Assembly: GCA_041674925.1 (NCBI GenBank)
Contig: JBAYUW010000003.1
Coordinates: 2,042-66,041, forward strand
Length of the DNA stretch: 64,000 bases
DNA from: Minisyncoccota bacterium
GTDB lineage: Bacteria > Patescibacteriota > Minisyncoccia > Phycocordibacterales > GWA1-40-21
Direction of reading: 5' to 3'
The notes under the pieces are model-generated. The model was not told where the DNA came from. It worked only from the letters and a program-made list of their open reading frames with translations, and did no database searches. Positions within the stretch are counted from its first letter, which is position 1, and the number at the start of each line of letters is the position of its first letter. The translations under genes and the position numbers were made by a program. Positions 5,284 through 48,341 of this stretch are shown one piece after another.

Positions 5284-5294
5284 GGACAATTGTT
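5248..5294 (+). repeat. direct repeat copy A: 3' end of mgtC (GTCGAGAAAGAGAATTCGGAGAGGTTTCATGAGTAG + GGACAATTG)
   Basis: The same ~36 nt, coding ...VEKENSERFHE-stop, recur at 8650-8697 and (more diverged) 9158-9196. All three are in the same orientation. Confidence 0.8.
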
Positions 5295-8577: not shown

Positions 8578-8649
8578 TAGTCGATAGTCATATTTACGAT
8601 TGTCGTTAATACTCATTAATTTCCAAATGATTTCTACAGCGATGGAAAA

Positions 8650-8697
8650 GTGGAGAAAGAAAATTCGGAGAGGTTTCATGAATAAGGTCTAATTGTT
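8650..8697 (+). repeat. direct repeat copy B of the mgtC 3' end
   Basis: GTGGAGAAAGAAAATTCGGAGAGGTTTCATGAATAA + GGTCTAATTG. The ENSERFHE-stop reading frame is kept. Confidence 0.8.
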
Positions 8698-9157: not shown

Positions 9158-9196
9158 CAGAAAACTCGGAACGGTTTCATGAGTAGGGGATGATTG
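9158..9196 (+). repeat. direct repeat copy C of the mgtC 3' end (diverged)
   Basis: CAGAAAACTCGGAACGGTTTCATGAGTAG + GGGATGATTG. Still encodes ENSERFHE-stop. Confidence 0.65.
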
Positions 9197-29931: not shown

Positions 29932-30206
29932 GCGGGCGTAGCTCAACGGTAGAGCACTCCCCTGTAGACGTGCAGCTTTCGGTCGAGAGACTGATTGAAA
30001 CTCTCTGGGATAACGGTGAAGGCTAAGTTTCATTTAGAAATATGCGAACACCGTGGGAACCCCTAGATTCGCTAGGGGGCGCCGTAGAGACTAGATACCG
30101 GAGTATCCTCATCCGAAAGGGAAGGATAAAGATATAGTCCATGCCATTACGAAAGTAATGAATTAGTGCACGGGAGAGGCCGTGGGGTCAGCACCCATCG
30201 CCCGCG
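29932..30206 (+). tRNA. tRNA-Asp(GUC)-like gene interrupted by a 203-nt group I intron (exons 29932-29965 and 30169-30206)
   Basis: 5' exon GCGGGCG-TA-GCTC-AACGGTA-GAGC-A-CTCCC-CTGT. 3' exon CAC-GGGAG-AGGCC-GTGGG-GTCAGCA-CCCAT-CGCCCGC-G. Joined, the anticodon loop is CTGTCAC, the same as the E. coli tRNA-Asp anticodon loop (E. coli 5'-flanking stem differs: CCTGC vs CTCCC here); discriminator G. The T-loop GTCAGCA is non-canonical. Confidence 0.55.
29966..30168 (+). ncRNA. group I intron (small, IC3-like) in the tRNA-Asp anticodon loop
   Basis: P7 GACTA...TAGTC, with the S-element AAGATATAGTCC and an R-like AGAGACTAGA. P9 hairpin CCATTAC-GAAA-GTAATG (GNRA loop) lies 8 nt before the terminal G. 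The internal guide GTGCAG can pair with the 5' exon CTGT (P1, U-G) and with the 3' exon CAC (P10). Confidence 0.6.
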
Positions 30207-30214
30207 CAAGAAAA

Positions 30215-30236
30215 AGTCGCTTTCGAGCGACTTTTT
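30215..30236 (+). terminator. rho-independent terminator AGTCGCT-TTCG-AGCGACT + T5 after the tRNA
   Basis: 7-bp stem, a UUCG tetraloop and a T-run, 9 nt after the tRNA 3' end. Confidence 0.6.
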
Positions 30237-30361: not shown

Positions 30362-30410
30362 GGGAGAGTCCATCGCCCGCGCAAAATAAAGCCCTGAAAA
30401 GGGCTTTTTT
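30362..30410 (+). repeat. partial duplicate of the tRNA-Asp 3'-exon end (GGGAGAG...CCATCGCCCGCGCAA, T-arm deleted) plus a second terminator (AAGCCC-TGAAAA-GGGCTT + T6)
   Basis: Nucleotides 30362-30384 repeat the ends of 30172-30208 with an internal deletion of GCCGTGGGGTCAGCACC. Terminator at 30389-30410. Confidence 0.55.
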
Positions 30411-34981: not shown

Positions 34982-35866
34982 ATGTTGGAGCAAAACGACA
35001 AAAAGAAAAAGTTGACGGAATTGGAAATGGAGATGAATACCGTGGATTTTTGGAGTGATAAAAATCATGCTCAAGCAGTGATCAAAGAGATTGCTGATTT
35101 GAAAGCGGAAATCGCTGGGGTGGGGAAATATGACAGTGGTGATGCGATTTTGACGATCATGGCTGGCGCGGGTGGTATTGACGCTGAGGATTTTGCGCGG
35201 ATGCTCCTTCAAATGTATTTAAAATATTTTGATAAAAAAGGTTGGGCTTATCGGACCATTCATCAAAATGAAAATGATCATGGTGGTTTTCGAAACGTGA
35301 CCGTGGAAATTTCTGGTAAGGGATCTTACGGTGCTCTTAAAAAAGAATCTGGTGTGCATCGTTTAGTGCGAACATCGCCATTTAATGCCAAAGGCTTGCG
35401 TCACACTTCTTTTGCTTTAGTGGAGTTTATTCCAAAATTTGAAAAAGCCAGCGCCTCCGATTTTATAATTCCCGAAGATGAGTTGCGTTTGGAATTTTCT
35501 CGCTCTAGTGGTCCGGGCGGGCAAAACGTGAATAAAAAAGAAACGGCAGTGCGAGTGGTCCATATTCCGACCAACTTGGCCGTTCATGCGGATGGTGAGA
35601 GGTCGCAAGCGCAAAACAAAGAGAAAGCTTTGCAGATTTTACGCGCCAAACTTTACACAAAATATGAGGAAGATCGTCGAAAAAAAGAACAAGGCCTCTA
35701 TGTCGCAAAAACTATGGAGATTGAGTGGGGGAATCAGATTCGTTCATATGTCCTTCATCCTTATAAAATGGTCAAAGATCATCGGACTGATTTTGAAACT
35801 GCTCAAGTGGATAAAGTTTTGGAGGGAGAAATTGACGAGCTATTGGATGCCGAGCGCGATCTGTAG
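34982..35866 (+). CDS. prfB: peptide chain release factor 2 (short form, lacks N-terminal ~45 aa)
   Basis: The SPF tripeptide motif (RTSPFNAKG) marks RF2. GGQ motif SGPGGQNVNK. 294 aa. The ATG is one nucleotide after the tRNA-Thr 3' end. No in-frame UGA frameshift site. Confidence 0.8.
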   Translation: MLEQNDKKKKLTELEMEMNTVDFWSDKNHAQAVIKEIADLKAEIAGVGKYDSGDAILTIMAGAGGIDAEDFARMLLQMYLKYFDKKGWAYRTIHQNENDHGGFRNVTVEISGKGSYGALKKESGVHRLVRTSPFNAKGLRHTSFALVEFIPKFEKASASDFIIPEDELRLEFSRSSGPGGQNVNKKETAVRVVHIPTNLAVHADGERSQAQNKEKALQILRAKLYTKYEEDRRKKEQGLYVAKTMEIEWGNQIRSYVLHPYKMVKDHRTDFETAQVDKVLEGEIDELLDAERDL

Positions 35867-35881
35867 TATAATGATTGAGTA

Positions 35882-36562
35882 ATGATTTATTTTGATAAAG
35901 TATCTAAAGTATACTCTGATGATTCAGTGGCTTTGTCCGATGTTAGTTTGACTATCAAGCCTAATGAATTCGTCTCCATTGTCGGTCATTCAGGCGCCGG
36001 TAAGACGACCTTGATTAAGATGATTTTAGCCGAAGAAAAACCAACTGACGGTGAGGTCTTTTACGAGTCGGTAAATGTTCACAAATTGAAAGGAAAAGAG
36101 ATGACTGAACTGCGCCGCAAGATTGGAACGGTGTTTCAGGATTTTAGACTTTTGCCAAATAAGACAGTTTATGAAAATATTGCTTTTGCGATGGAAGCGG
36201 CGGGACGAACTGATGAAGAAATTGAAGCTGATGTGCCACACGTTTTAGAATTAGTGGATATCAGTCAAAAAATTTATAGTTTTCCGAGTGAGCTGTCGGG
36301 TGGAGAAAAACAACGAGTGGCGATTGCTAGGGCGATTGTGAATCAGCCAGAAGTAATTATTGCCGATGAGCCGACGGGAAATTTGGATCCAGCTAATGCG
36401 CATGAAATCATTCAGATTCTTAAAAAAATAAACGATTTGGGCACAACGGTGATTTTGACGACGCATAATCGTGGGGTGGTGGACAATTTAGGTAAGCGCG
36501 TGATCAGTATGCAAAATGGCAAGATTATTAGAGATGATAAAAGCGGAGGTTATGTCTTATAA
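35882..36562 (+). CDS. ftsE: cell-division ABC ATPase FtsE
   Basis: Walker A GHSGAGKTTLIKMI, ABC signature LSGGEKQRVAIARA, Walker B VIIADEPTGNLD. Confidence 0.85.
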   Translation: MIYFDKVSKVYSDDSVALSDVSLTIKPNEFVSIVGHSGAGKTTLIKMILAEEKPTDGEVFYESVNVHKLKGKEMTELRRKIGTVFQDFRLLPNKTVYENIAFAMEAAGRTDEEIEADVPHVLELVDISQKIYSFPSELSGGEKQRVAIARAIVNQPEVIIADEPTGNLDPANAHEIIQILKKINDLGTTVILTTHNRGVVDNLGKRVISMQNGKIIRDDKSGGYVL

Positions 36563-36571
36563 ATAAAAATT

Positions 36572-37495
36572 ATGTTTATTACAAAAATAAAAAGAGTTTT
36601 CCGCGCTGGTCTGACAAACTTTTGGCGTAATGGTTTTGTTTCACTTTCTTCACTTGTGGTGATGTTTATCACCTTGTTTATGATCTCTTCTTTGATTTTT
36701 ATGAGTGCGATTTTACAATTTTCTTTGAAAGAAATAAAAGATAAAGTTGATATCAACGTCTATTTCACTAGTCGCGCCAGTGAAGCCGACATCTTTAGTT
36801 TGAAAAAATCTATTGAAACGATTTCGGAAGTGGACAACGTGACTTATGTTTCCAAAGAAGAGGCGCTAGCAAATTTCAAAGAGCGTCATCAAGACGATGC
36901 CCTGACCCTCGAGGCCCTTGATGAGCTTGGTGAAAATCCTTTGACGGCGTCTTTAAGTATTAAAGCGAAAGAGCCTTCGCAATATGAATCAATTGCTAAA
37001 TTTCTAGGTGGCGCCGATGGCAGTGCTAGTACCAATCCGATTATCGAAAAGGTGAATTATTATCAAAATAAAGTGGTGATTGACAAGCTGACCAAGATTA
37101 CCAGCGCGGCCAATACTGTCGGCTTTTGGGTTGCCATTCTCTTCCTGATTATTTCTATCGTCATTACTTTCAATACTATTCGCCTCGCCATTTTTATTTC
37201 CAAAGACGAGATTTCCGTCATGCGTCTGGTTGGAGCTTCTGGTCGCTATGTCAAAGGTCCCTTCGTCGTCTCCGGTATTCTTTATGGTATTGTCTCGGCG
37301 ATTCTGGTGATCGTGGTTTTCTTTGGCCTGACTTTCTGGGTCGGCAATTTATCCAAAAACTTTTTCATCGGTCTCGACCTCTTTGATTTCTACCTCAAAA
37401 ACTTTGGTCAAATTTTCCTCATCGTCTTTGGCTCAGGTATCGCCCTCGGTGCAATCTCGAGTTATCTCGCGGTGCATAGGTATTTGAAGATATAG
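36572..37495 (+). CDS. ftsX: cell-division permease-like protein FtsX
   Basis: Four TM segments with a large extracytoplasmic loop. Immediately downstream of ftsE. Confidence 0.8.
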   Translation: MFITKIKRVFRAGLTNFWRNGFVSLSSLVVMFITLFMISSLIFMSAILQFSLKEIKDKVDINVYFTSRASEADIFSLKKSIETISEVDNVTYVSKEEALANFKERHQDDALTLEALDELGENPLTASLSIKAKEPSQYESIAKFLGGADGSASTNPIIEKVNYYQNKVVIDKLTKITSAANTVGFWVAILFLIISIVITFNTIRLAIFISKDEISVMRLVGASGRYVKGPFVVSGILYGIVSAILVIVVFFGLTFWVGNLSKNFFIGLDLFDFYLKNFGQIFLIVFGSGIALGAISSYLAVHRYLKI

Positions 37496-37571
37496 ACGGG
37501 AACCTCGGCTCAGTTATCCACAACTGAAGAGTCGCAATATTTTTGGGGTAAATGCTAGAATACTCGGCGTT

Positions 37572-37970
37572 ATGGAGAAGGATTTTGATCTCTGGAATAT
37601 TAAGAAAAAAGAAACTCAACGAATTGATGACATTGTTCTCTTTTATGAAAGGGAAGTCTGGTGGTGTATTATTGGTACAAATATTGGGGTAGAGATAGAC
37701 GGTAAGCATGAATTATTTTTACGCCCAGTGGTGGTGGTTCGAAAATTTAATAAATATATGACCCTGGTCATTCCGACCACCACTCAGGATAGAGATAATA
37801 AGTACTATTTTGCTGTCACTGGTGAGGATAATAAAGTTTATAATACTTGTCTATCCCAGATAAAATCAATTAGTTCAAAAAGACTATTTAGAAAAATTGG
37901 GACTATTAAGTACGGAGATTATCAAGCTTTATTGGAAAAGACTGCTTATATGGTCAGAGGTATATTGTAA
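37572..37970 (+). CDS. MazF/PemK-family endoribonuclease homologue, paralogue of the 1487-1924 ORF, no adjacent antitoxin
   Basis: EKDFDLWNIKKK...REVWWCIIGTNIGVEIDGKHELFLRPVVVV parallels KKDFDKWNELKK...GEVRWCIFGINIGNEIIGKGEFFRRPALIL in the first copy (about 40% identity by eye). Confidence 0.55.
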   Translation: MEKDFDLWNIKKKETQRIDDIVLFYEREVWWCIIGTNIGVEIDGKHELFLRPVVVVRKFNKYMTLVIPTTTQDRDNKYYFAVTGEDNKVYNTCLSQIKSISSKRLFRKIGTIKYGDYQALLEKTAYMVRGIL

Positions 37971-37975
37971 ACAAC

Positions 37976-37997
37976 GAAATCCCCTTGCGGGGATTTC
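37976..37997 (+). terminator. hairpin GAAATCCCC-TTGC-GGGGATTTC after the mazF-like gene
   Basis: Perfect 9-bp stem 6 nt after the stop. The U-tract is inside the 3' arm and is not downstream of the stem, so the terminator assignment is moderate. Confidence 0.5.
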
Positions 37998-38101
37998 TCA
38001 GAGGCCGAAGCCCATAATCACTCTAAGTATAGCAAGTTGATTTCAGTTGTCAAACCACAAGCCCTTGAAAAAGTCTCATTTTTAACGTATCCTTGCTGTA
38101 T

Positions 38102-38172
38102 TGCCAGATCGTCTAATGGTAGGACACATCCCTCTGGAGGATGTTATCTTGGTTCGAATCCAGGTCTGGCAG
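38102..38172 (+). tRNA. tRNA-Gln (anticodon CUG)
   Basis: U1-A72 pair (TGCCAGA/TCTGGCA), D-arm GTCT-AATGGTA-GGAC. Anticodon stem CATCC/GGATG with loop CTCTGGA. T-arm CTTGG-TTCGAAT-CCAGG, discriminator G. Confidence 0.8.
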
Positions 38173-38176
38173 CTAT

Positions 38177-38204
38177 TGACAAAAAGTATCAAGTATGCTA
38201 GACT
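38177..38204 (+). promoter_or_regulatory. weak candidate promoter TTGACA-N16-TAGACT immediately after tRNA-Gln
   Basis: A perfect -35 hexamer 5 nt after the tRNA. The -10 is poor. Confidence 0.3.
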
Positions 38205-38267
38205 TGATAATGAACTAGTTTGGTTGGTCTTGTAGATCAACCTTTTAACACAAGAGGAGAAGTAGAA

Positions 38268-38738
38268 ATGAATATCAATGGACTGAGCAAGGCCGCAGTA
38301 CTCGCAGCGCTTTACAACGCTTCCAAACCCCAAGGCATGGGGTTCATGCACTACGATCCGACACCGATGACGGTGGAAGAAGCGCAGGCAGAACTCGACG
38401 GCAATCCGCGTAAACGCTTCGATTACCTCAAGGGCCGTGTCATGAAAATCACGCTCATCGAGGACGAAGTGGATACGTGGGGTTACAACCGCGACAATGG
38501 CGAAGGTGCGGCGGAACGGGCGATTGATATCCTTCGTTCCGAGGGCGATCCCAATGCGCAACCCATTCGTGATACACACAATGCGAACACGCATGCGGCG
38601 GCCGTGGATGTCGAGCGTCATCTCGGTGATCATACCACGGTTAAGACCGAAGGTGGAATCGTCTACATGCATCTCGGCCTGGCAGATGTTCGGGAACACC
38701 TCGCACCTCAGGTCGCCAAGGTCACACGGCGGAACTGA
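38268..38738 (+). CDS. hypothetical protein encoded in a G+C-rich island (likely horizontally acquired)
   Basis: ATG at 38268 preceded by GAGGAGAAG (an SD-like sequence). The protein starts MNINGLSKAAVLAALYNASKPQGMGF and has no family I recognise. The composition is roughly 55-60% G+C by inspection, against the high 30s for flanking DNA. Confidence 0.5.
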   Translation: MNINGLSKAAVLAALYNASKPQGMGFMHYDPTPMTVEEAQAELDGNPRKRFDYLKGRVMKITLIEDEVDTWGYNRDNGEGAAERAIDILRSEGDPNAQPIRDTHNANTHAAAVDVERHLGDHTTVKTEGGIVYMHLGLADVREHLAPQVAKVTRRN

Positions 38739-38781
38739 TCCTCAACAAGAGTCGCTAACCAGATAACAGCGCAGAATCTGG

Positions 38782-38810
38782 AGCCTCGCATTCGTGCGGG
38801 GCTTTCATTT
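38782..38810 (+). terminator. rho-independent terminator AGCCTCGCA-TTCG-TGCGGGGCT + U-rich tail
   Basis: 9-bp stem, a UUCG tetraloop, then TTCATTTG. Confidence 0.6.
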
Positions 38811-38841
38811 GTCTAAATTTCTTTATTTTGTGTTAAAATAG

Positions 38842-38870
38842 TTCCAACTTCGTACTAGACGGCCAGCTAA
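38842..38870 (+). repeat. intergenic direct repeat, copy 1 (TTCCAACTTCGTACTAGACGGCCAGCTAA)
   Basis: One of five copies of a ~29-nt element, consensus TTCCAACTTC(A/G)TACCACACGAC(C/T)AGC(C/T)AA. It is preceded at 38824-38843 by TATTTTGTGTTAAAATAGTT, a near-copy of the aroE 3' end. Confidence 0.75.
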
Positions 38871-38887
38871 TAAGTTATAATAAGTAT

Positions 38888-39556
38888 ATGGAAGATGATC
38901 TAAAAACATATATCGAAAAATTAGATATAAGAATAAGAGAAATGTTCAACTCTGAAAGTAGTGGACATGATATCTATCACTTACACAGAGTATTTAACTT
39001 AGCCTTACATCTACAAGAAAAAGAAGGTGGCAATAGACTGATTATTGGAGTCTCGGCATTACTACACGATCTTCATCGTTTAATGGAGAAAGAATCGGGC
39101 GTATTTTGTCCACCAACAAATTCTTTACCAGCAGTTAAAAAGCTACTAAAAGAAATTGATTTTCCAAATGTTATTATTTCTAGGGTTTTGCACTCAATCG
39201 AACATCACGAGGAGTATAGTTTTTCAAAAGATGGTAAAACTGTAAATGATTTAGAAACTCTTATCTTACAAGATGCTGATAATTTAGACGCCATCGGAGC
39301 AATTGGAGTTGGAAGAACTTTTGCTTTTGGTGGAGCACATGGAGTGCCCATGTGGATCCCCGAAAAACCTTTCGATAGAGATCACTTTGATGAATCCGAG
39401 AAAGATCCTTCTACTATTCACCATTTTTATTCAAAACTATTAAAATTAGAAAAAAACATGAATACAGAAACTGCAAAAAATATGGCTAAGGGAAGGACTG
39501 ATTTCATGAATAAATTTATCGAACAATTTATTAGTGAGTGGAAAGGTGAAAAATAG
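38888..39556 (+). CDS. HD-domain metal-dependent phosphohydrolase
   Basis: HLHRVF, LLHDLHR (the HD dyad) and QDADNLDAIGAIGV are characteristic of the HD superfamily. Confidence 0.7.
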   Translation: MEDDLKTYIEKLDIRIREMFNSESSGHDIYHLHRVFNLALHLQEKEGGNRLIIGVSALLHDLHRLMEKESGVFCPPTNSLPAVKKLLKEIDFPNVIISRVLHSIEHHEEYSFSKDGKTVNDLETLILQDADNLDAIGAIGVGRTFAFGGAHGVPMWIPEKPFDRDHFDESEKDPSTIHHFYSKLLKLEKNMNTETAKNMAKGRTDFMNKFIEQFISEWKGEK

Positions 39557-39587
39557 CAGGTTTAATCATTATTCTCTGGTAAAGAGT

Positions 39588-39616
39588 TTCCAACTTCAAA
39601 CCATACAGTCAGCCAA
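39588..39616 (+). repeat. intergenic direct repeat, copy 2 (TTCCAACTTCAAACCATACAGTCAGCCAA)
   Basis: See copy 1. Lies 32 nt after the HD-gene stop. Confidence 0.7.
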
Positions 39617-39639
39617 CGTTTTTGTCTAAATTTAAAACA

Positions 39640-40311
39640 ATGAAAACAAAAAAGCATATCATAATATTTTCACACGGTTTTGGAGTCCGTAAAGACGACA
39701 ATGGCCTTTTGACCGAGATAGCCAAAGCTATTCCTGAAGCTGAATCAATACTCTTTGATTATTATCAATTTAATGAGAGAAATAATACTTTAACCATTTG
39801 CCCATTTAGTAAACAAGTGGAAATGTTACTGACTGTAATCAATCAAGCTAAAAAAGATCATCCCGAAGCGACGATAGACCTGATCTGTCATTCTCAGGGG
39901 ACCATCGTTGCTGGTTTAGCCGCACCTATTGGTATTAGAAAGACTATTCTACTTTCGCCACCTTTTGATATGAGTCTTGAGCGTAGTTTAAAAAGGTATA
40001 CCTCAAAGCCCGACGCGGTTGTGAATATCAATGGTATCTCTGTCGTTCCATCTTCAAGTGGTCTTGTAAGAATTATTCCGCCTGAATATTGGGTTGAACG
40101 CAAAGAGGTAAGAGCATTTGAGGCTTACAATAATCTAGCCGAAAAGACGGAACTTATTATCATAGAAGCAAATCAAGACATGTTGATAGAAAAGGTTGAT
40201 TTAAAAGAACTTAGTCCAAAGATAAAATTGGCGCCGCTTGATGGTGACCATGGTTTTTCTGGTAAGGATAGGGGGCCGTTATTGGCTGCCTTGAGAGGCT
40301 ACATCATTTAG
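39640..40311 (+). CDS. alpha/beta hydrolase
   Basis: MKTKKHIIIFSHGFG start (the ORF track begins at an upstream TTG at 39622). Nucleophile elbow CHSQGT (GxSxG-type). A C-terminal Asp/His. Confidence 0.6.
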   Translation: MKTKKHIIIFSHGFGVRKDDNGLLTEIAKAIPEAESILFDYYQFNERNNTLTICPFSKQVEMLLTVINQAKKDHPEATIDLICHSQGTIVAGLAAPIGIRKTILLSPPFDMSLERSLKRYTSKPDAVVNINGISVVPSSSGLVRIIPPEYWVERKEVRAFEAYNNLAEKTELIIIEANQDMLIEKVDLKELSPKIKLAPLDGDHGFSGKDRGPLLAALRGYII

Positions 40312-40320
40312 ACAGAATAG

Positions 40321-40350
40321 CCTTAACTTCGTACCACACGACCAGCTCGC
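40321..40350 (+). repeat. intergenic direct repeat, copy 3 (CCTTAACTTCGTACCACACGACCAGCTCG)
   Basis: See copy 1. Begins 10 nt after the stop. Confidence 0.75.
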
Positions 40351-40422
40351 GATTTATCCTCGTTTCTCAACATCAAAAAATCGACCTGTTTTGTGTGTTG
40401 GAATTTTGTTATAATTATTATT

Positions 40423-40848
40423 ATGAAAATAGAACGTCCTAAAGTCGGTGTAAACGTTTTTGTTATTAAGGATAACAAATTACTTCTGGGTAAAGGAAAG
40501 AATGTCTTTGGCGATGGCTATTGGGGATTACCGGGCGGTCATTTGGAGGGTGGGGAATCGATGACTGGTGGAGCAAAAAGAGAGTTAAAAGAAGAGACAG
40601 GGCTTACCGCTGACAAGTTAACATTTCTGAATGTTATAAATGATCCACCGATAGATGAAGGTGGGCATTATGTTCACGTCGGTTTTTTAGCGGAAGATGT
40701 TCAGGGTGAGCCAAGACTTACCGAACCAGATAAATGTTCTGAACTGAAATGGTTTGATCTAAATGACTTACCGCAAGAGGAAGAGATATTTATTGGACAT
40801 CGCAAACAAATAGCTGCATTTTTAAACAAAATCGTGTTTGTTGATTAA
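40423..40848 (+). CDS. NUDIX hydrolase
   Basis: Nudix box GGHLEGGESMTGGAKRELKEETGL (Gx5Ex7REUxEExGU). The ATG at 40423 is inside the longer ORF. Confidence 0.8.
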   Translation: MKIERPKVGVNVFVIKDNKLLLGKGKNVFGDGYWGLPGGHLEGGESMTGGAKRELKEETGLTADKLTFLNVINDPPIDEGGHYVHVGFLAEDVQGEPRLTEPDKCSELKWFDLNDLPQEEEIFIGHRKQIAAFLNKIVFVD

Positions 40849-40852
40849 GGGC

Positions 40853-40881
40853 TTCCAACTTCATACCACACGACTAGCCAA
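40853..40881 (+). repeat. intergenic direct repeat, copy 4 (TTCCAACTTCATACCACACGACTAGCCAA)
   Basis: See copy 1. Begins 5 nt after the NUDIX stop. Confidence 0.75.
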
Positions 40882-40983
40882 GTGCTTGATGGAGAAATTA
40901 TCGACCCTTTATTTACTGAGTTGAGTTGGTGAGGTTCTTGTGTTAATATTATTCATGAAAAAGCTATATATCGAAATATTTTA

Positions 40984-42474
40984 ATGAAAAAAGAACAAGA
41001 AAAAAATACTTTTGTTGATCAAATAACACCAAGAAGCCAGGATTTTTCTCAATGGTATCTTGATATTATCAGGGTGGCAGATTTGGCTGAAAATTCACCA
41101 GTCAGAGGTTGTATGGTCATAAAACCTTACGGCTATGCGATTTGGGAGAATATTCAAAAAGTTTTAGATGCCGAGTTTAAAAAACTTGGAACTCAAAATG
41201 CCTATTTTCCACTTCTAATTCCCAAGAGTTTTTTAGAAAAAGAAGCGGAACACGTTGAAGGATTTGCAAAAGAATGTGCCGTCGTGACGCATCATAGACT
41301 TGAAGAAAAAGACGGCAAGCTGATCCCGGCTGGAGAACTCGAAGAGCCGCTTGTGATCCGTCCCACCTCCGAAACGATAATCTACGATACTTTTTCAAAA
41401 TGGATACATTCATATCGTGACTTACCTTTATTGGTAAATCAATGGTGCAACGTGTTTAGATGGGAAATGAGGACAAAGCCTTTTTTAAGAACGTCGGAAT
41501 TTCTATGGCAAGAAGGCCATACCGCTCATGCCACAAAAGAGGAGGCAGACCGAAAGACCCTGGAAATGCTTGAAGTATATAAAAAATTCGTGGAGGATTA
41601 TCTGGGAATATCGCCAGTTCTTGGTAGAAAAACCGAAAGTGAAAAATTTGCTGGCGCAGATTACACGACATCAATCGAAGCTTTGATGCAGGATGGTAAG
41701 GCTTTGCAATCCGCAACCTCGCATATGCTCGGTCAAAATTTCTCGAAGTCGTTTGAAGTTTCGTTCCTAAATGAAAAACAGGAAAAGGAGTATGTTTGGC
41801 AAACAAGTTGGGGCTTGTCCACCAGAATAATTGGGGCTTTGATCATGTCACATTCAGATGATAAAGGGTTAGTTTTGCCACCAAAAATTGCTCAGTTTCA
41901 AACAGTAATAATTCCAATTCACGGAAGCGAAGACGAAAAGGCGATTGTACTTGAGAAAGTCGAGAAAGTGAAAAAGGAGTTGGTTGCCGCTGGCATAACT
42001 TTTAAGTTGGATGATAGAGAGGGTCGTACCGGTTTCAAATATTTTGAATGGGAAAGGAAGGGTATTCCTCTCAGACTGGAGATTGGTCCAAAAGATGTCG
42101 CAAAGAATTCTGTGGTTGTCGTTGAAAGATTGCAAGGCAAGAAAGAATTTGTGGCTGATGAAAATTTGGTTTCTTTTATTAAATCTAATCTAGAAAGTAT
42201 TCAAAATACTTTATTAGATAATTCGAAAAAATTTAGATTAGAAAACACAAGAGAAGTATCAGATTACGAAGAGTTTAAGAAGGTGATTGAAAATAAACCA
42301 GGTTTTATTTCTACTCATTTATGTACTGATAAAAATTGCGAAGAAAAGATTAAAGAGGAAACAAACTCCACCAGCCGATGTATTCCTTTTGGCAATGGAA
42401 TTGGCAACTCTGGAAGGTGCATTTATTGTAAACAGGACGCTCCCAATAAGGTTTTGTTTGCGAAGGCTTATTAA
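40984..42474 (+). CDS. proS: prolyl-tRNA synthetase (archaeal/eukaryotic-type class II ProS)
   Basis: Class II motifs (RPTSETIIY motif 2 region). Anticodon-binding domain and a C-terminal Zn-binding domain with Cys. 496 aa. Confidence 0.85.
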   Translation: MKKEQEKNTFVDQITPRSQDFSQWYLDIIRVADLAENSPVRGCMVIKPYGYAIWENIQKVLDAEFKKLGTQNAYFPLLIPKSFLEKEAEHVEGFAKECAVVTHHRLEEKDGKLIPAGELEEPLVIRPTSETIIYDTFSKWIHSYRDLPLLVNQWCNVFRWEMRTKPFLRTSEFLWQEGHTAHATKEEADRKTLEMLEVYKKFVEDYLGISPVLGRKTESEKFAGADYTTSIEALMQDGKALQSATSHMLGQNFSKSFEVSFLNEKQEKEYVWQTSWGLSTRIIGALIMSHSDDKGLVLPPKIAQFQTVIIPIHGSEDEKAIVLEKVEKVKKELVAAGITFKLDDREGRTGFKYFEWERKGIPLRLEIGPKDVAKNSVVVVERLQGKKEFVADENLVSFIKSNLESIQNTLLDNSKKFRLENTREVSDYEEFKKVIENKPGFISTHLCTDKNCEEKIKEETNSTSRCIPFGNGIGNSGRCIYCKQDAPNKVLFAKAY

Positions 42475-42496
42475 TTTAGACGGACAAACCTTTTTT

Positions 42497-43272
42497 ATGA
42501 AATCATTTGGAGTTATAGGCCATCCAGTTTCTCATTCTTTGTCTCCTAAAATATTCAACACTGCTTTTTCTGCCTCAAAAATAGATGCGGTTTATGAAGC
42601 TGTGGATATTCCACCCGAGAAACTCGAATCATTTATCCAAGAAGAAAAAAACTTAATGAATTTTCTGGCTTGAGTGTAACCGTGCCACACAAAGAAAAAA
42701 TTATTCAGTTTCTCGATGAAATTTCAGAGAGGACGCAAAAGATTGGCGCGGTCAATACAATTATAAAAGCTCAGAATAAATTGATTGGCGAGAATACGGA
42801 TTGCATCGGTGTTCAATATGCAATGAAAAATATTAGAGACATTAAGAATAAATCTTTTTTGCTAATTGGCGCTGGTGGTGTAGCTAGGGCAACAATTTTT
42901 GCGTTAAAGGAGATGGGGGTAAGTAAAATTACTATTTGGAATAGGACAATAGAAAAAGGTTTAAGACTTTCTCAAGACTTTGATGTTCATTTTTCTGAAA
43001 AAATTCCAGATGAATCTGAGGTCATAATTAATTGCACTACAATTGGATTGAAGGACGGGGAAGTATTACCAATATCAGACGAAATTTTAAAAAATGCAAA
43101 GATAGTATTTGATATGGTGTATGGAGAGACGGATTTAATTAAAAGAGCGAAAAAATTTGGGCTTGTGACAATAGAAGGAAAAGAGATGCTATTAGGTCAA
43201 GCCTTTGAACAATTTAAGCTTTTTACGGGTATAGATGCACCGAAAGCGACGATGATTGAGGTGTTAAAATAG
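42497..43272 (+). pseudogene. aroE: shikimate dehydrogenase aroE with a -1 frameshift in a T4 run at 42661-42664 (or a homopolymer sequencing error)
   Basis: The N-terminal MKSFGVIGHPVSHSLSPKIFN...NLMNF is in one frame, and FSGLSVTVPHKEK...GAVNT... in the -1 frame. Adding one T to the TTTT run restores the conserved NF-SGLSVTVPHKE junction. Confidence 0.65.
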
Positions 43273-43300
43273 TTCCAACTTCATACCATACAGCTGTTAA
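43273..43300 (+). repeat. intergenic direct repeat, copy 5 (TTCCAACTTCATACCATACAGCTGTTAA)
   Basis: Begins 1 nt after the aroE stop. It is the 5' boundary of the second G+C-rich module. Confidence 0.7.
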
Positions 43301-43328
43301 ATACTTTAACAGTGAAATATATAAATTG

Positions 43329-43356
43329 TTGACACCCAGCAAAATTAGAGTAATAT
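43329..43356 (+). promoter_or_regulatory. sigma70-type promoter TTGACA-N16-TAATAT driving the G+C-rich ORF
   Basis: Consensus -35, a 16-nt spacer and a near-consensus -10, 54 nt upstream of the ATG at 43410. Confidence 0.5.
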
Positions 43357-43409
43357 CTTATTTGGACCCCGAGTGACCGTTCATGCTCTAGAGAGAAAGG
43401 CAACTCCGA

Positions 43410-43730
43410 ATGAAGACGAAGAATAAACCCTCGCCCACCCTCAGTGTTCTGAACTTGAAACAGCTGAAGAAACAGCTCACAAATCCGGCCGGTGTGCCAA
43501 TGTGGCAGTTGCACCCATCGGTGCAACATTGTCTGCGGCTTTTTCAGGACCTTCGTCCTGGTACGGTCGAAAGGAAGTGCGCTGATGACTCCGACTGGGT
43601 CGTCAATCACGGCCGTTCATCGGCGATGTTTCTGGTGCCTTACCGACTTAAGAATGGCGCTTTTAATTTGCGCTTTCTTGAGGACAATTCCGCATATGGT
43701 TGGTTCAAAGACATTAGGGTAAAGCCCTAG
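43410..43730 (+). CDS. hypothetical protein in the second G+C-rich module (frame assignment uncertain)
   Basis: 106-aa ORF beginning MKTKNKPSPTLSV, in a visibly G+C-rich segment. Overlapping ORFs exist on both strands. No family I recognise. Confidence 0.4.
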   Translation: MKTKNKPSPTLSVLNLKQLKKQLTNPAGVPMWQLHPSVQHCLRLFQDLRPGTVERKCADDSDWVVNHGRSSAMFLVPYRLKNGAFNLRFLEDNSAYGWFKDIRVKP

Positions 43731-43748
43731 ACGGGTTAAGGTCAATAG

Positions 43749-43781
43749 CCCACAGGAAAGCTCCTGCGGGCTTTCTTGTTT
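43749..43781 (+). terminator. rho-independent terminator CCCACAGGA-AAGC-TCCTGCGGG + CTTTCTTGTTT
   Basis: 9-bp stem with one mismatch and a T-rich tail. It is followed at 43794-43813 by TATTTTGTGCTAAAATAGTT, an aroE-3'-end-like duplicate. Confidence 0.55.
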
Positions 43782-43820
43782 CCGAAAATTCAATATTTTG
43801 TGCTAAAATAGTTTACAAGT

Positions 43821-44594
43821 ATGTATAAAAGAATCATTGTAAAAATAGGAACAAAGGTATTAACCACTGAGGCTGGGACGCTCGATGTTTCTTTCCTTGG
43901 TCACATTGTCGATCAATTAGTGAGGTTGCGCGAAAAAGGATTACAGGTGGTGCTTGTAACTTCTGGGGCTGGAGCGGCAGGACGGGAACTTATCTCACTT
44001 AATGAATCAAAATCAGAGACGGTCAGAAAACAAGTCTTCACTGCCGTTGGTCAGGTTAAGCTGATGAACGTGTATGCGCAGTTATTTGAAAAATATAAAT
44101 ATCATTGTGCTCAAGTCTTGGCGACTAAAGAAGATTTTCGTGATAAAGAACATTATGAAAATATGCAAAATTGCTTTGAGGCCCTGCTTCTCGACAAGGT
44201 CATTCCGATTGTCAATGAAAACGATGTTGTCGCTACGACGGAATTGATGTTTACGGATAATGATGAGTTAGCGGGTCTCGTCGCCAAACAACTTAAAGCT
44301 GATGCTTTGATAATTCTCACGAGCACTGACGGTATTTTGAATGATCAAGGAGAGACTGTTTCTGAGGTAAATGTATCTAATCTCGATTTGGTCGCTGATT
44401 GGATTAATCCAAGTAAGTCAAATAGTGGGCGAGGGGGGATGATTTCAAAGTTTGCCGTTGCCAAGGAATTGTCTGAAAAAGGAATAATTGTTCATATTGT
44501 AAAAGGTAAGAGTGAAAATATAATAGAGCGAATAGTCGCCAGTGAAAAGACGGGGACGGTTTTTCTGTTACACGGTCGACAAATCAGCGCTTAA
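43821..44594 (+). CDS. amino-acid kinase family protein, glutamate 5-kinase (ProB)-like without a PUA domain
   Basis: KRIIVKIGTKVLT and VVLVTSGAGAAG are typical of the aspartate/glutamate/uridylate kinase fold. 257 aa. Confidence 0.55.
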   Translation: MYKRIIVKIGTKVLTTEAGTLDVSFLGHIVDQLVRLREKGLQVVLVTSGAGAAGRELISLNESKSETVRKQVFTAVGQVKLMNVYAQLFEKYKYHCAQVLATKEDFRDKEHYENMQNCFEALLLDKVIPIVNENDVVATTELMFTDNDELAGLVAKQLKADALIILTSTDGILNDQGETVSEVNVSNLDLVADWINPSKSNSGRGGMISKFAVAKELSEKGIIVHIVKGKSENIIERIVASEKTGTVFLLHGRQISA

Positions 44595-44625
44595 CTTATT
44601 TCTAGAGAGATGATATGTTTATTAT

Positions 44626-45036
44626 ATGAAAATATTTATCATTTGCAGTAAAAATTTTTACGATCGAATTCCAGAAATCAAAGAGACGCTCGAAAAAATG
44701 GGTCATATTATAACTCTTCCTAATTGTTATAACGATCCAGGAACCGAGGCGCGGTATAGAGATATGAGTAAGGAGGAACATTCAAAATGGAAAGCTGAGA
44801 AACTACTCCATAGCACTGATGTTATTAATAACAACGATTCAGTCTTGGTTCTTAATTTTGAAAAAAATGATATTCAGAATTACATTGGCGGTGCGACCTT
44901 CTTAGAAATGTATGATGCCTTTCGTCTTGGTAAAAAGATTTTTATGTTTAATGATATTCCAGAGGGGATATTGAAAGATGAAATTAATGGTTTCGGTCCG
45001 ATAATTATTAATGGTGATTTAAGTAAAGTAAATTAA
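44626..45036 (+). CDS. nucleoside 2-deoxyribosyltransferase-like (Rcl/DNPH1/NDT fold) protein
   Basis: MKIFIICS start, and a C-terminal GGATFLEMYDAFRLGKKIF resembling the NDT/Rcl GT.fE.G.A...gKp block. Tentative. Confidence 0.4.
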   Translation: MKIFIICSKNFYDRIPEIKETLEKMGHIITLPNCYNDPGTEARYRDMSKEEHSKWKAEKLLHSTDVINNNDSVLVLNFEKNDIQNYIGGATFLEMYDAFRLGKKIFMFNDIPEGILKDEINGFGPIIINGDLSKVN

Positions 45037-45052
45037 ATTAAACGAACCAATT

Positions 45053-45559
45053 ATGCGCACTATCAAAGTAAACGACAAAATGCAGACGGGGTATTTATAC
45101 GAGTGTACCGAGCCGGTGGGGAAGAATTTTGATGCGCAATTTAAGCCGGATTTGAAGCCGAAAGAAATGTTGGCATTAGGAGTGTTTGGCGGGCGATATA
45201 TTAGAGACTGCCAAAAAGAATTTCCCAAAGATTGGTTCACCAAAGCCAAACTTTTTCCTCTCGGTTTACCTGGGCACGATAAAAATTTAAATTTTTTTGG
45301 TGTCGATGCCTCACAGCCTTTATCAGTTTGGAGAAAGAAGGGCTGGATTCACAAAGACGATCCGCGCGGTTGGTTTCAGTGGTATTGTCGCTATTATCTT
45401 GGCCGTCGACGACCAGAAGAAGATGCAATTCAAATCAAACGTTGGCGGGCGATGACTCGTCATTTGGCCCAGGTTCAGAAAAATTGCCGCGCTGGCGATC
45501 GTTTTTGCCGCCCCAAACAGCGTCAGGCTTTATTGCACTGGGCGTATGATACTCGTTGA
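45053..45559 (+). CDS. hypothetical Trp/Arg-rich protein (moderately G+C-enriched)
   Basis: 168 aa carrying KGWIHKDDPRGWFQWYCRYYLGRR. No family I recognise. Confidence 0.4.
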   Translation: MRTIKVNDKMQTGYLYECTEPVGKNFDAQFKPDLKPKEMLALGVFGGRYIRDCQKEFPKDWFTKAKLFPLGLPGHDKNLNFFGVDASQPLSVWRKKGWIHKDDPRGWFQWYCRYYLGRRRPEEDAIQIKRWRAMTRHLAQVQKNCRAGDRFCRPKQRQALLHWAYDTR

Positions 45560-46025: not shown

Positions 46026-48341
46026 TTAAACAGTGAAGTTTCTATTGATTATGCCGTTGTCGGCTAGAATCACTGGGGAAGTATAGACGAGTGAATAGCT
46101 CTCATCGTCATTTTTCTTTTCGACTTTGACAAAATATTTTCCTTTATTGACCAAGCAGTAATAACGTCCGATTTTATCGGCAACTTTATTGGTAATCTCC
46201 ACATTTAAATCAGCGGAAAAGATTCGCACGATAGCAAAAGAAAGAGGATTGCCGTTTTTGTCGAGCAGGGCACCAGTCGCTTTTTGTTTTAAACCAAATT
46301 TTCTCAGAACAGCGAGAAGAAGATACAAGCAGAAGATGACAATGTTGTATGGAGCGCTGACTAGGAATAGAGAAATAAGCGAGACGAGAAAACCAATTCG
46401 GAAAATCCAGTCGGTGAGGATTCTGACGATTTTTTCTCGTTTGGAATAGAACTTCATTAATTTTTTCTGACCTTTGACGAATTCATTCCAGTCAAATTTA
46501 ACTGGGTCAAGAGGAATATTTTTACTGATCACTGCGCCGGTAACTGGCACATTTATTTCGCCACCCAAATATAGGTTATTATACAAAGCGTCTTCAGTTT
46601 TACCCGCCATTTTTTTAGAAGGGAAAATATAATTTGTTTTATTTGCAGTCAGAAGATATTGACCTGGGCTGACCAAGAAGCCATAGCGACCATCAAGGTC
46701 GGTGATCGAAGTCATATCATCTTTGCTATTAATTTTTGTGAGAGTGACATAGGCTGGATCGATAGGCTGTTTGGTCACACTATCATACACGGTACCCCAA
46801 GGGCGATTTCTTTTCTTTAAACCTAAGACGCTCAAAAGTAATCCCCAGACTTTAAATGGTAAAAAGGCGAGATCGGCGATGGCCATACCATTGATCGCTA
46901 GGACTGAAGTGGCGGCCAAACCCCCACCAATCACTCCGGCGGTCGTGATAGTTTTTGTTACGGCAGAACCTGTCGGATTATCAATAATTTTTTTGGCGCC
47001 TAAGATAATTTCTTGGGTGGTGGTGCCGAGGACTTCCAAATTCTCGATCGGAAGTAAAGTCTCTGTCTTTTCAGTAGATTTTCCAGGATGATTATTTTCG
47101 ACAGGGTCCGGTGTCTCAATTGGAACTATTTCACCCTCGTCGTTTATTTGGCAGGCTCGACTTATGTCTGGTCCTACGCCACCTTCGCAGTTTGCTGGTA
47201 GTCTAATCAAGACATTGCGAGTCTGGTTGCCGTTTACACAATCTGACCAAGAAGAATATGTATATTCAGAACAAAATGGAATAACTACTGGTGGCGGCGG
47301 AATGATTCTTCTGACAGTAATTGAAATTGTATCAGTCTTGGTTTGATCGGATTGTAGTCTGGCTTGAATGGTGATGGTGAGAAATTGTAGAAGGGGAGCG
47401 TCGGCAAAAGATGGGGCGATATAAAGCCCGCTATCGTTTATTGTGCCGTAATAATTTCCATAAACTATTGGCATATTGGTAATGTTCCAAACGAGATTAG
47501 TAGAAGTTGTGCCTGTGACGGTCGCGGTTAGTTGTAATTGTTGATTGGCAAAAATAGTTGTTTGGGTTGGGGTGTTAATTGAAACATTTATTGATGGGGT
47601 CGTTGTTGAAGTTATGACAGTACAAGATTCAGTGGTTGTCGCTGTTACTCCACCGCTACAGTTTGATGGGTATTCTCGGGAAATACTTCTGGTTCTTTGG
47701 CCGTTTGTACATGGTCCCCAGTCACTATAATCAAAAGATCTACAATCAGGTGAACCGCCACCGCCCGGATCCTCTGGTGGTGGGGCTGGTGTTGGATTAG
47801 TCCAAGCTGTCTCTACTCCTTGATTATTTGGTGTATCAGAAAAAGAAATCCAGCCAATATTTTCTCCCCAAGCGTGGCCAGAAAAGACACCGGTGTCTCG
47901 GTTGATCGTTACTCCACCCCCATCTGGATTAAATTTTATCCAACCAATATTTTCTCCCCAGGCCTCACCGGAAAGATTTCCAATACTGTCATTTGATACG
48001 CCGTATTCAAAATCATCACATGAACCATCAATATTTTCACAAGTCATTGAAATCCAGCCAATATTTTCTCCCCAAGCATAGCCATATAGTTTTGTATCAG
48101 AAACATACACCCGGCCTTCGACATGGCTAGTATCTGTTCCGAAGTTTATCCAACCAACTGTATCACTCCAAGCGTAACCGGAAGTTGTGGTGGCGCTACT
48201 GTCGGCCTCGACAAGATCAATTACCGCGGCTGATTGTTTGCCGATATCGAGATTACTAATTTGGCTTAAATTTGTGCCAATAAATATAACCAAAGCAAAA
48301 ATTGCCAAACTTGCTAAATATTTTTTTAGAACAGCTCTCAT
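46026..48341 (-). CDS. large surface protein: signal peptide, four tandem G(Y/E/H)AWxxxIGWI repeats, duplicated Cys module, carboxypeptidase-regulatory-like domains, C-terminal TM segments
   Basis: Repeats GYAWSDTVGWINF, GYAWGENIGWISM, GEAWGENIGWIKF and GHAWGENIGWISF. Two ~40-aa modules (CRSFDYSDWGPCTNGQRTRS...C and CSEYTYSSWSDCVNGNQTRN...C). A Thr-rich linker. C-terminal hydrophobic helices. Confidence 0.55.
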   Translation of the reverse strand: MRAVLKKYLASLAIFALVIFIGTNLSQISNLDIGKQSAAVIDLVEADSSATTTSGYAWSDTVGWINFGTDTSHVEGRVYVSDTKLYGYAWGENIGWISMTCENIDGSCDDFEYGVSNDSIGNLSGEAWGENIGWIKFNPDGGGVTINRDTGVFSGHAWGENIGWISFSDTPNNQGVETAWTNPTPAPPPEDPGGGGSPDCRSFDYSDWGPCTNGQRTRSISREYPSNCSGGVTATTTESCTVITSTTTPSINVSINTPTQTTIFANQQLQLTATVTGTTSTNLVWNITNMPIVYGNYYGTINDSGLYIAPSFADAPLLQFLTITIQARLQSDQTKTDTISITVRRIIPPPPVVIPFCSEYTYSSWSDCVNGNQTRNVLIRLPANCEGGVGPDISRACQINDEGEIVPIETPDPVENNHPGKSTEKTETLLPIENLEVLGTTTQEIILGAKKIIDNPTGSAVTKTITTAGVIGGGLAATSVLAINGMAIADLAFLPFKVWGLLLSVLGLKKRNRPWGTVYDSVTKQPIDPAYVTLTKINSKDDMTSITDLDGRYGFLVSPGQYLLTANKTNYIFPSKKMAGKTEDALYNNLYLGGEINVPVTGAVISKNIPLDPVKFDWNEFVKGQKKLMKFYSKREKIVRILTDWIFRIGFLVSLISLFLVSAPYNIVIFCLYLLLAVLRKFGLKQKATGALLDKNGNPLSFAIVRIFSADLNVEITNKVADKIGRYYCLVNKGKYFVKVEKKNDDESYSLVYTSPVILADNGIINRNFTV

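Follow-up and report, generated by a model that had tools for sequence, protein, structure and literature searches.

A moron-like expression cassette for a small protein family at the edge of a repeat-punctuated accessory-gene string in a Minisyncoccota genome

We analyzed the region between aroE (shikimate dehydrogenase) and proB (glutamate 5-kinase) in a contig of a Minisyncoccota bacterium (NCBI GenBank assembly GCA_041674925.1, contig JBAYUW010000003.1), where a stretch rich in guanine and cytosine (G+C), at 43273-43813, carries a promoter, a gene for a protein of 106 amino acids (aa) and a terminator, and is bracketed by two similar short sequences. Positions refer to the window, the whole stretch of 64,000 nucleotides (nt) that was analyzed (positions 2,042 to 66,041 of the contig), unless a contig of another genome is named by L and a number. 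The contig comes from a metagenome-assembled genome (MAG) labelled Candidatus Paceibacterota bacterium. The cassette, as we call this stretch, closes on its downstream side a run of accessory genes of 5.6 kilobases (kb) that starts at the transfer RNA gene tRNA-Gln and is entirely unlike L091, the contig of the closest relative. The motif shared by the brackets is called O, and the half that follows it in the left bracket P'. The locus contains the following features.

42497-43272, + strand: aroE, matching Pfam Shikimate_dh_N, Shikimate_DH and SDH_C (SDH_C end to end).
43257-43298, + strand: left bracket, fifth copy of the O-P' repeat in the window (37 bits, model R1), with O as GGTGTTAAAATAGTT over the aroE stop and P' as CCAACTTCATACCATACAGC.
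43292-43312, + strand: A+T-rich hairpin CTGTTAAA-TAC-TTTAACAG, weak (-7 kcal/mol, z -1.9, not significant) and located after P' and before the cassette promoter.
43329-43356, + strand: cassette promoter TTGACA-N16-TAATAT (promoter scan, 10/12 matches).
43357-43409, + strand: 5' leader of 53 nt, read from the sequence and partly alignable with homologous loci.
43395-43400, + strand: ribosome-binding site GAAAGG, 9 nt 5' of the ATG, read from the sequence.
43410-43730, + strand: coding sequence (CDS) of 106 aa, NCBI hypothetical protein WC027_01310, recognized by its homologues and open frame.
43747-43781, + strand: intrinsic terminator with stem AGCCCACAGGA / TCCTGCGGGCT (43747-43757 / 43762-43772), loop AAGC and tail TTCTTGTTT.
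43783-43813, + strand: right bracket, L-O segment CGAAAATTCAATATTTTGTGCTAAAATAGTT, 26/31 identical to 38813-38843 by manual count.
43799-43809, + strand: extended -10 element TGTGCTAAAAT, 11 nt 5' of the proB ATG, one of 7 TGTGnTAWWAT sites.
43821-44594, + strand: proB (Pfam AA_kinase, 3e-42), which is not at the L091 locus.

The first-pass annotation of this DNA had described a G+C-enriched insert with a near-consensus promoter and an intrinsic terminator, and all three were recovered at the positions given there. The G+C content is 0.52-0.535 at 43400-43700 against 0.33-0.39 in the flanks, and 0.505 in the CDS against 0.393 (39%) in the whole window. In a promoter scan of 3 kb the cassette promoter, which is of the sigma-70 type, is one of the three top-scoring sites, and it appears to be positioned to transcribe the leader and the 106-aa gene. 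The terminator hairpin with its tail folds at -19 kcal/mol (z -3.7); a simple terminator scan overlooked it because its T-run is interrupted, and its 3' stem and the sequence downstream are homologous to the 3' ends of the two other G+C-rich modules described below. The hairpin at 43292-43312 was considered as a terminator for aroE and rejected, the fold being weak and followed by no U-run. The cassette thus has three features of a phage moron, namely its own promoter, its own factor-independent terminator and a base composition unlike that of its neighbours. Terminal inverted repeats, a feature of insertion sequences (IS) and of miniature inverted-repeat transposable elements, were not found, as the repeat copies in the window are all on the + strand without an inverted partner.

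Which strand and frame of the insert codes had been called ambiguous, given that open reading frames (ORFs) overlap on both strands. The overlap is there, but the ambiguity is not, as only the + strand ORF is real. A word-indexed homology search with the 106-aa protein found only the protein itself, so that an exhaustive HMMER search of 1.84 billion representatives was needed; this yielded 16 homologues, 8 of them below 1e-10, nearly all of 84-131 aa and matching end to end. The + frame at 43410-43730 is open in 6/6 loci compared, the antisense frames are not conserved, and the G+C content by codon position is 0.53 / 0.38 / 0.60. In the family alignment (A2), N25, P36, Q39, R43, R79 and F85 are invariant and P30, W32, H35, H40 and Y78 nearly so, with P-x-W-x-M-H-P-x-V-Q-H-x-L-R as the core motif. 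AlphaFold2 with this alignment gave a model with a predicted local distance difference test score (pLDDT) of 86.5, a predicted template modelling score (pTM) of 0.76 and the topology alpha-alpha-beta3-alpha-alpha. Because of the homologues, the conserved motifs, the open frame and this confident model, we regard the ORF as a real gene of a small conserved protein family. Foldseek found no significant fold match in PDB and BFVD (best E 0.06), and with profiles no significant hit was obtained in Pfam, PHROGs, PADLOC, NCBIfam or PDB sequences; in particular, this sole gene of the insert matched no recombinase family. As far as these sequences tell, the family is one seen so far only in Paceibacteria-like contigs, with neither a recognisable fold nor a recognisable function.

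The first-pass annotation had also pointed to phage and plasmid databases. Searches of the insert by blastn and tblastn against phages and plasmids gave no match, nor did a scan of IMG/VR with the profile of the 106-aa family, and as all of these searches were empty, a phage or plasmid origin of the insert was rejected.

Homologues of the 106-aa gene were located on Paceibacteria-like, A+T-rich contigs, among neighbours that are mutually unrelated:

L082: 165-aa gene / M14 peptidases.
L085: Ser hydrolase / 81-aa gene.
L087: 80-aa gene / helicase operon.
L088: efp / recA.
L220: contig end, upstream of an aminotransferase.

At the four of these loci for which promoters were compared (L082, L085, L087 and L220), TTGACn-N17-TAATAT lies upstream of the homologue, with hexamers as in the window cassette, and is followed by a partly alignable leader, the gene and a strong terminator. 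Similarity between loci begins at the -35 hexamer and ends at the terminator T-run. Because it is confined to this interval among unrelated neighbours, we take promoter, gene and terminator as the unit of transfer, and the three travel together between genomes in a moron-like manner. L082 and L085, which have a flank 94% identical, show for a homologous copy a further trait of morons, a position between two genes that are adjacent in a related genome: the 165-aa gene and M14 are adjacent in L085 and split by the module in L082. L085 has only a terminator at the position of the L082 module, and its own module, 67% identical, lies elsewhere. As a side observation, the 136-aa gene 3' of proB (44626-45036), for which no family could be assigned, has a 69% identical homologue on L087 (3932-4339), 660 nt upstream of the 106-aa family member there, which suggests a loose linkage of the two genes or a common variable region.

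In the closest relative, L091 (aroE P0026, 72% aa identity), which was also the only close aroE relative found, aroE is directly followed by SWIB, with no cassette and no proB. The insert is thus absent from the corresponding position and not conserved in synteny; synteny across relatives, which by the first-pass annotation would have counted against an integration, was not seen. To the right, gene order is kept (response regulator, CarboxypepD_reg-domain protein, FtsJ; 65-78% identity), and between aroE and the response regulator L091 has SWIB only, whereas the window has the cassette, proB, the 136-aa gene and a 168-aa gene; upstream of aroE, gene content also differs. We consider the cassette foreign because of the G+C content of its CDS (0.505), its third-position G+C (0.60) and its absence at the L091 position, and the proposal of a foreign, self-contained promoter-ORF-terminator unit is supported in this respect.

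aroE itself is split near 42653 by a 1-nt deletion (TTAAAT to TTAAT) relative to the intact aroE of L091, leaving ORFs at 42497-42673 and 42670-43272. This frameshift, already noted in the first pass, and the insert are both present in a separately deposited ENA assembly (L081) that is 99.99% identical over 8.8 kb, and aroE is probably a pseudogene, unless both assemblies share an error. On the other side of the cassette, the best relatives of proB among the GTDB species representatives are 50-68% identical, none with proS or aroE nearby, so that a synteny test through them was uninformative. Besides three MAGs at 67-68% and three Patescibacteria-group or Paceibacterota MAGs at 50-58%, the relatives of proB are mostly Bacteroidota and other bacteria outside the Candidate Phyla Radiation (CPR) at ~45-53%. 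proB may itself be an acquired gene.

The brackets, GTGTTAAAATAGTT (43261-43274) and GTGCTAAAATAGTT (43800-43813), are identical at 13/14 positions. Pairs of 50-nt windows, spaced 530 nt apart, were drawn for comparison, 4000 at random and 3000 from AT-rich DNA; they matched this well in 0.2-0.3% of cases (empirical p about 0.002-0.003), so that the flanking similarity is better than chance for A+T-rich DNA as well. On the left, the last four codons and the stop of aroE (GTG TTA AAA TAG) lie within O. The right copy contains TGTGnTAWWAT, a pattern that has 7 occurrences in the window, each of them on the + strand and just 5' of a gene start (often 6-11 nt from the ATG), and whose type is also found before aroE in L091. 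It is the organism's standard extended -10 promoter, and the right bracket is the promoter of proB, placed to drive that gene. A pattern search for the right bracket was matched 4 times, with 0.54 expected. The first-pass annotation had read the brackets as an insertion that duplicated ~15-20 base pairs (bp) of the aroE end. The direct flanking repeat stands, but a simple copy of the target end does not: the right copy is the extended -10 element of proB, the left copy is part of a repeat family of ~45 nt, and the 31-nt stretch of the right bracket is also found after a first module, at 38813-38843, with a version of it after a third module, in L091. Nor is a 540-bp event alone enough to account for the difference from the relative, which spans ~2.3 kb (cassette, proB and two more genes).

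That the insert had been called a second module implied a first one, and this is present after tRNA-Gln:

38174-38843, + strand: first G+C-rich module (cassette 1), directly 3' of tRNA-Gln (38102-38173).
38176-38204, + strand: its promoter, TTGACA-N17-TAGACT, from the sequence.
38268-38738, + strand: its CDS of 156 aa, G+C 0.56, from the sequence.
About 38780-38812, + strand: its terminator (-18.6 kcal/mol).
38813-38843, + strand: its L-O segment, after the terminator.

The N-terminal 92 residues of the cassette 1 protein have tblastn matches to phage hypothetical proteins, the best to Dulem virus 39 (58% over 92 aa; in an early region near CI and SSB) and another to Streptomyces phage Gilgamesh (46%). 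Immediately 5' of tRNA-Gln and the accessory string there is a PemK/MazF-like toxin gene (37572-37970). The module of L091 (1840-2227, G+C up to 0.52) lies upstream of aroE and differs in cargo, possibly a 43-aa ORF or an RNA. It ends in a terminator-L-O homologous to the end of the cassette between aroE and proB (cassette 2), followed by a decayed R and then by aroE. A homologous terminator-L-O end is therefore found behind three different G+C-rich cargoes, those of cassette 1, cassette 2 and the L091 module.

Three sites in the window share these elements, with R standing for P':

Site 1, 38813-38870: L-O-R.
Site 5, 43261-43298: aroE-O-R.
Site 6, 43783-43813: L-O-proB.

Sites 1 and 5 have 22 exact bases in common (38830-38851 and from 43261 on) and are 88% identical over 34 nt, while the similarity of sites 1 and 6 (26/31 bases) runs into the 3' stem of the terminators. 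With x for aroE and y for proB, the relation L-O-R / x-O-R / L-O-y is the pattern that would be expected of a circle integrating at O.

Our preferred reading, to which we assign a probability of about 0.6, is that 43273-43813 is a horizontally acquired autonomous expression cassette that was inserted by a crossover within O. Before the event, the 14-nt O motif (GTGYTAAAATAGTT) would have had two roles, closing aroE and acting as extended -10 promoter for the gene downstream. The unit would have entered as P'-promoter-gene-terminator-L-O, that is, as a circle of R, cargo, terminator, L and O whose closed junction equals site 1, and would have recombined within O with the target x-O-y. The outcome would be x-O-R...L-O-y, with O on both sides and the left copy still ending aroE. 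The right O, brought by the cassette, would re-supply a promoter 11 nt upstream of proB, and this replacement of the promoter, we propose, keeps proB expressed. The catalyst could have been either a site-specific recombinase or recombination through microhomology. The predicted empty site is GAGGTGTTAAAATAGTTTACAAGTATG, or ...ATGATTGAGGTGTTAAAATAGTTTACAAGTATGTATAAAAG as a longer junction, in which aroE-O would be directly joined to TACAAGTATG-proB, and the predicted circle junction is ...TTCAATATTTTGTGCTAAAATAGTT|CCAACTTCATACC, or ...GAAAATTCAATATTTTGTGCTAAAATAGTTCCAACTTCATACCATACAG as a synthetic junction.

The repeat to which the left bracket belongs is ~45 nt long and consists of TGTTAAAATAGTT followed by CCAACTTCGTACCAGACGGCCAGC, the P' half having the consensus CCAACTTCGTACCAGACGGCCAGCyAA. 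The window holds five copies, all direct and within 4.5 kb (38.8-43.3 kb). The four upstream of the left bracket are:

38827-38871, + strand: copy 1 (47.4 bits, model R1), a complete L-O-R between cassette 1 and an HD-domain gene.
39574-39617, + strand: copy 2 (32.4 bits), starting 17 nt, and reaching its CCAAC core 33 nt, past the stop of the HD phosphohydrolase gene.
40307-40349, + strand: copy 3 (30.6 bits), overlapping the stop of an alpha/beta-hydrolase-like gene.
40838-40881, + strand: copy 4 (34.9 bits), with the TGA stop of a NUDIX gene within its O part (TGATTAAGGGCTT).

Copies outside the window come from a pattern scan of metagenomes and from profile searches: four and a right-half copy within 6 kb of L118 (3364-9336), two in L183 (3095-3660), one in L111 (2343-2387), and one with a left-half copy in L082 (1684-2371), the Pacebacteria contig listed above on which the 106-aa gene has a homologue as well. 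The pattern scan gave at least 119 hits, nearly all of them chance matches in A+T-rich DNA and only those in L111, L118 and L183 true copies. A scan of IMG/VR with the P' motif gave 8 hits, which are two unrelated coding sequences and about the number expected by chance, and a second pattern gave none; in plasmids there was no match. The repeat is present in L082 and absent in the related L085. All copies are co-oriented with the genes, and 11 of 14 start 0-33 nt after a stop codon. Several hold the stop within O (TGA in TGATTAAG, TAG in TAAAATAG), for unrelated genes and in different organisms. Between copies lie genes for NUDIX (Pfam 4e-25 in the window), HD, alpha/beta hydrolase, HIT, DUF2726, Hypoth_Ymh and EEP nuclease proteins, and an ORF judged by eye to be GIY-YIG-like. 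The 45-base repeat is previously undescribed, and it may mark the joining points of such units.

Several other identities of P' were compared by eye and were dropped: a 3' fragment of a tRNA or transfer-messenger RNA (tmRNA), a Xer/dif-like site, a promoter for an extracytoplasmic function (ECF) sigma factor, an IS91-type end and a look-alike of a Tn7 TnsB site (AAAATAGTT...AACT). In each case T-arm pairing, dyad symmetry, a suitable spacing or an inverted partner was missing. Downstream partners of the GTTGG type were seen by eye in only 2-3 copies. Two stretches next to copies are recorded here as side observations. On its reverse strand, L111 has a long G+C-rich hairpin immediately 5' of a type-A copy (reverse complement, ~50-165), formed by GTGATACCCTCAAGCAATCT and AGATTGCTTGATGGTATCAC and enclosing an inner stem, CTTCATGCCCAC / GTGGGCATGAAG; a large terminator and a structured RNA are both conceivable. 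In L082, ~225 nt of rather G+C-rich, hairpin-bearing non-coding DNA (2372-2598) separates the copy from the promoter of the next gene, and may represent the remnant of a cassette or else a small RNA.

The reading of a cassette inserted at O has some drawbacks that need to be considered. The block by which L091 differs from the window exceeds the cassette in size, and the 3' ends of aroE are also unlike; because of these two differences L091 provides no exact empty site. Neither a circular form nor a nucleotide-level empty site was found, the sole close relative (72% aa) being rearranged at the locus. No recombinase or transposase was found in the cassette or among the scanned neighbours (proteins at 34982-45559 of the window and 4545-9305 of L118). 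Cassette 1 has no P' (R) on its left side, contrary to a simple tandem model, and the homologous modules elsewhere have neither a target duplication nor an L-O end. The repeat gave no pairs in RNAalifold, run on a 47-column alignment of 12 copies, and has no dyad symmetry. Part of the similarity of the bracket copies could be functional convergence, O being a promoter consensus. All of these points speak against the insertion as we propose it.

This convergence is central to one alternative, which we consider possible if unlikely: that no duplication is linked to an insertion, that the two O copies are two ordinary extended -10 promoters, and that the cassette came together with proB and the next two genes in a larger replacement, by illegitimate or homologous recombination. 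It agrees with how common the pattern is here, every one of the 7 sites being 5' of a start and the lone mismatch between the bracket copies sitting at its unconstrained 'n', with the entire block of cassette, proB, 136-aa gene and 168-aa gene missing from L091, which has SWIB in its place, with the closest GTDB relatives of proB not being syntenic, and with the missing target duplications at homologous modules. However, the similarity extends beyond the consensus, to 22 exact bases (38830/43261) and to 26/31 (38813-38843/43783-43813), and includes non-promoter bases, and the L-O-R / x-O-R / L-O-y pattern is not what one would expect from convergence.

A second alternative, tentative and again on the improbable side, is that the repeat is a cis-element acting at the RNA or regulatory level and unrelated to the arrival of the cassette, such as a signal of the 3' untranslated region or of cistron boundaries, or else, where the repeat has its TGTTAAAATAGTT form, a promoter with a conserved transcript start. 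The strict co-orientation with genes and the tight linkage to stop codons suit such an element, as do the good extended -10 of the type-A form with its predicted start at CCAAC, the preservation of the repeat among organisms that share only about 70% identity in housekeeping genes, and the enrichment of its neighbours for enzymes of nucleotide housekeeping (two NUDIX, two ORFs judged HIT-like by eye, and HD). Yet the repeat has no secondary structure, the next start codon follows at anything between 10 and 228 nt, some copies are located past a terminator and would therefore not be on the upstream transcript, and copies are clustered and missing from related genomes; the three-way relation of the sites would also be left unexplained.

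More doubtful, in our view, is the most far-reaching alternative, an undescribed gene-cassette system of Patescibacteria, carried by Paceibacteria, in which the repeat would be an attC- or pdif-like junction or recombination site. Here the ~45-nt non-palindromic junction TGTTAAAATAGTT|CCAACTTCGTACCAGACGGCCAGC would join O, as the stop-codon-rich or extended -10 half, to P', as the conserved half; circles of P'-cargo-O would integrate at O-like promoters and regenerate the downstream promoter; and 38.2-43.8 kb would be an array in which cassette 2, the newest member, has been caught in place, the two hybrid junctions and a complete donor-type site being preserved. The five direct copies in 4.5 kb and those in L118, L183, L082 and L111 would fit, as would their common orientation, their position past stops (0-33 nt in 11/14, several supplying the stop), the varied accessory genes between them, the half copies and the variable presence among related genomes (L082 yes, L085 no). 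It is difficult to reconcile with the missing integrase near the examined arrays, the missing inverted repeat or hairpin, the core-type genes proS and aroE inside the 'array', a total of only about 14 known copies and the fact that no gain or loss bounded exactly by the repeat was seen.

Finally, that the G+C-rich stretch is a structured non-coding RNA gene with accidental ORFs, as its composition within an A+T-rich genome, its promoter and terminator, its folding z-scores (only -2.3 on the + strand and -3.2 on the - strand) and the lack of a gene call there by one gene caller in the ENA assembly might suggest, is highly improbable and was rejected, as no Rfam family was found at the gathering threshold, with nothing meaningful up to E 10, ARAGORN reported no tmRNA, and the conservation of residues and frame in 16 protein homologues, the codon-position G+C and the confident AlphaFold2 model effectively refute it at the protein level.

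Further to these analyses, some features elsewhere in the window were recorded. At 29934-30220 there is a tRNA-like gene (5' half GCGGGCGTAGCTCAACGGTAGAGCACTCCCCT..., 3' half ...GGGAGAGGCCGTGGGGTCAGCACCCATCGCCCGCGC) seemingly split by a group I intron; Rfam Intron_gpI matches at 29941-30161 with 49.3 bits, just below the gathering score of 50 (E 1.6e-11), and the tRNA was reported neither by ARAGORN nor by the Rfam gathering run. A second, shortened tRNA 3' end (GGGAGAGTCCATCGCCCGCGCA) lies at about 30362-30385, and a terminator follows each copy. A 57-nt repeat (TTCCTACAGTGATGAACAAGTCGAGAAAGAGAATTCGGAGAGGTTTCATGAGTAGGG) occurs three times near gene boundaries with 86-90% identity (5229-5285, 8631-8687 and 9159-9188). 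Four 36-nt repeats, 90-114 nt apart at 47845-48180, lie inside a minus-strand gene of 771 aa (CarboxypepD_reg-like) and are internal protein repeats that can be aligned to L091 too.

CPR bacteria have tiny genomes, and to our knowledge their gain of genes is poorly understood and few mobile elements have been described in them. At this locus a foreign gene arrives as a ready-to-run promoter-gene-terminator unit, and such units recur in different Paceibacteria at different places, tied here to a conserved repeat found between accessory genes of several unrelated contigs. Should this repeat prove to be a site of recombination, it would represent a new route of gene exchange in a large and little-understood group, and the locus would show, in nature, an insert giving back the promoter that it had displaced. 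The 106-aa family, with a confident predicted fold, no known relatives and a strong promoter upstream, is a clean target for functional work.

Of the known systems with which we compared the locus, the pdif/Xer modules of Acinetobacter plasmids are similar in being small modules between short conserved sites with no recombinase inside. Xer sites consist of two inverted 11-nt arms around a 6-nt spacer, whereas the O-P' repeat, on inspection of alignment A5, has no such arm symmetry. Islands that target the 3' ends of tRNA or tmRNA genes share with the cassette a direct repeat of ~14 nt that brackets the insert, a left copy that forms the 3' end of a gene with frame and stop kept, and an array beginning beside a tRNA gene. 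They differ in that the 540-bp insert here has no integrase and that the core doubles as a promoter and is found at other sites of the genome.

Integron cassettes with their attC sites, including clusters of attC sites lacking integron integrases (CALINs), are similar in forming a one-orientation run of mostly single accessory genes, with a direct repeat copy abutting or overlapping the stop of each gene and a gene content that varies between relatives. In contrast to attC, the O-P' repeat has no imperfect inverted-repeat hairpin (R''-L''...L'-R'), and its resemblance to the R''/R' cores is only loose. No IntI-type integrase is found among the proteins at 34982-45559 of the window or 4545-9305 of L118. 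Integron cassette ORFs are usually promoterless, whereas the window cassette has its own promoter and terminator, and the core-type genes proS and aroE lie between the repeats.

Closest in character are the morons of phages, for which we know of no bracketing repeat. The window cassette has such a repeat at its ends, lies outside any prophage (its neighbours aroE, proB, proS and accessory enzymes are cellular), and encodes a family that was not found in phage, IMG/VR or plasmid collections. It shares with morons the occurrence of its homologues between otherwise unrelated genes in different genomes. Morons are defined as promoter-gene-terminator units acquired as a unit, as in the independent transcription units of the HK97/HK022 type (Cumby et al. 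2012, PMC3594210). In this sense, the DNA described here is a foreign expression cassette of a moron-like kind. It encodes a novel small protein and stands at the margin of a hypervariable accessory string that is punctuated by a new repeat.

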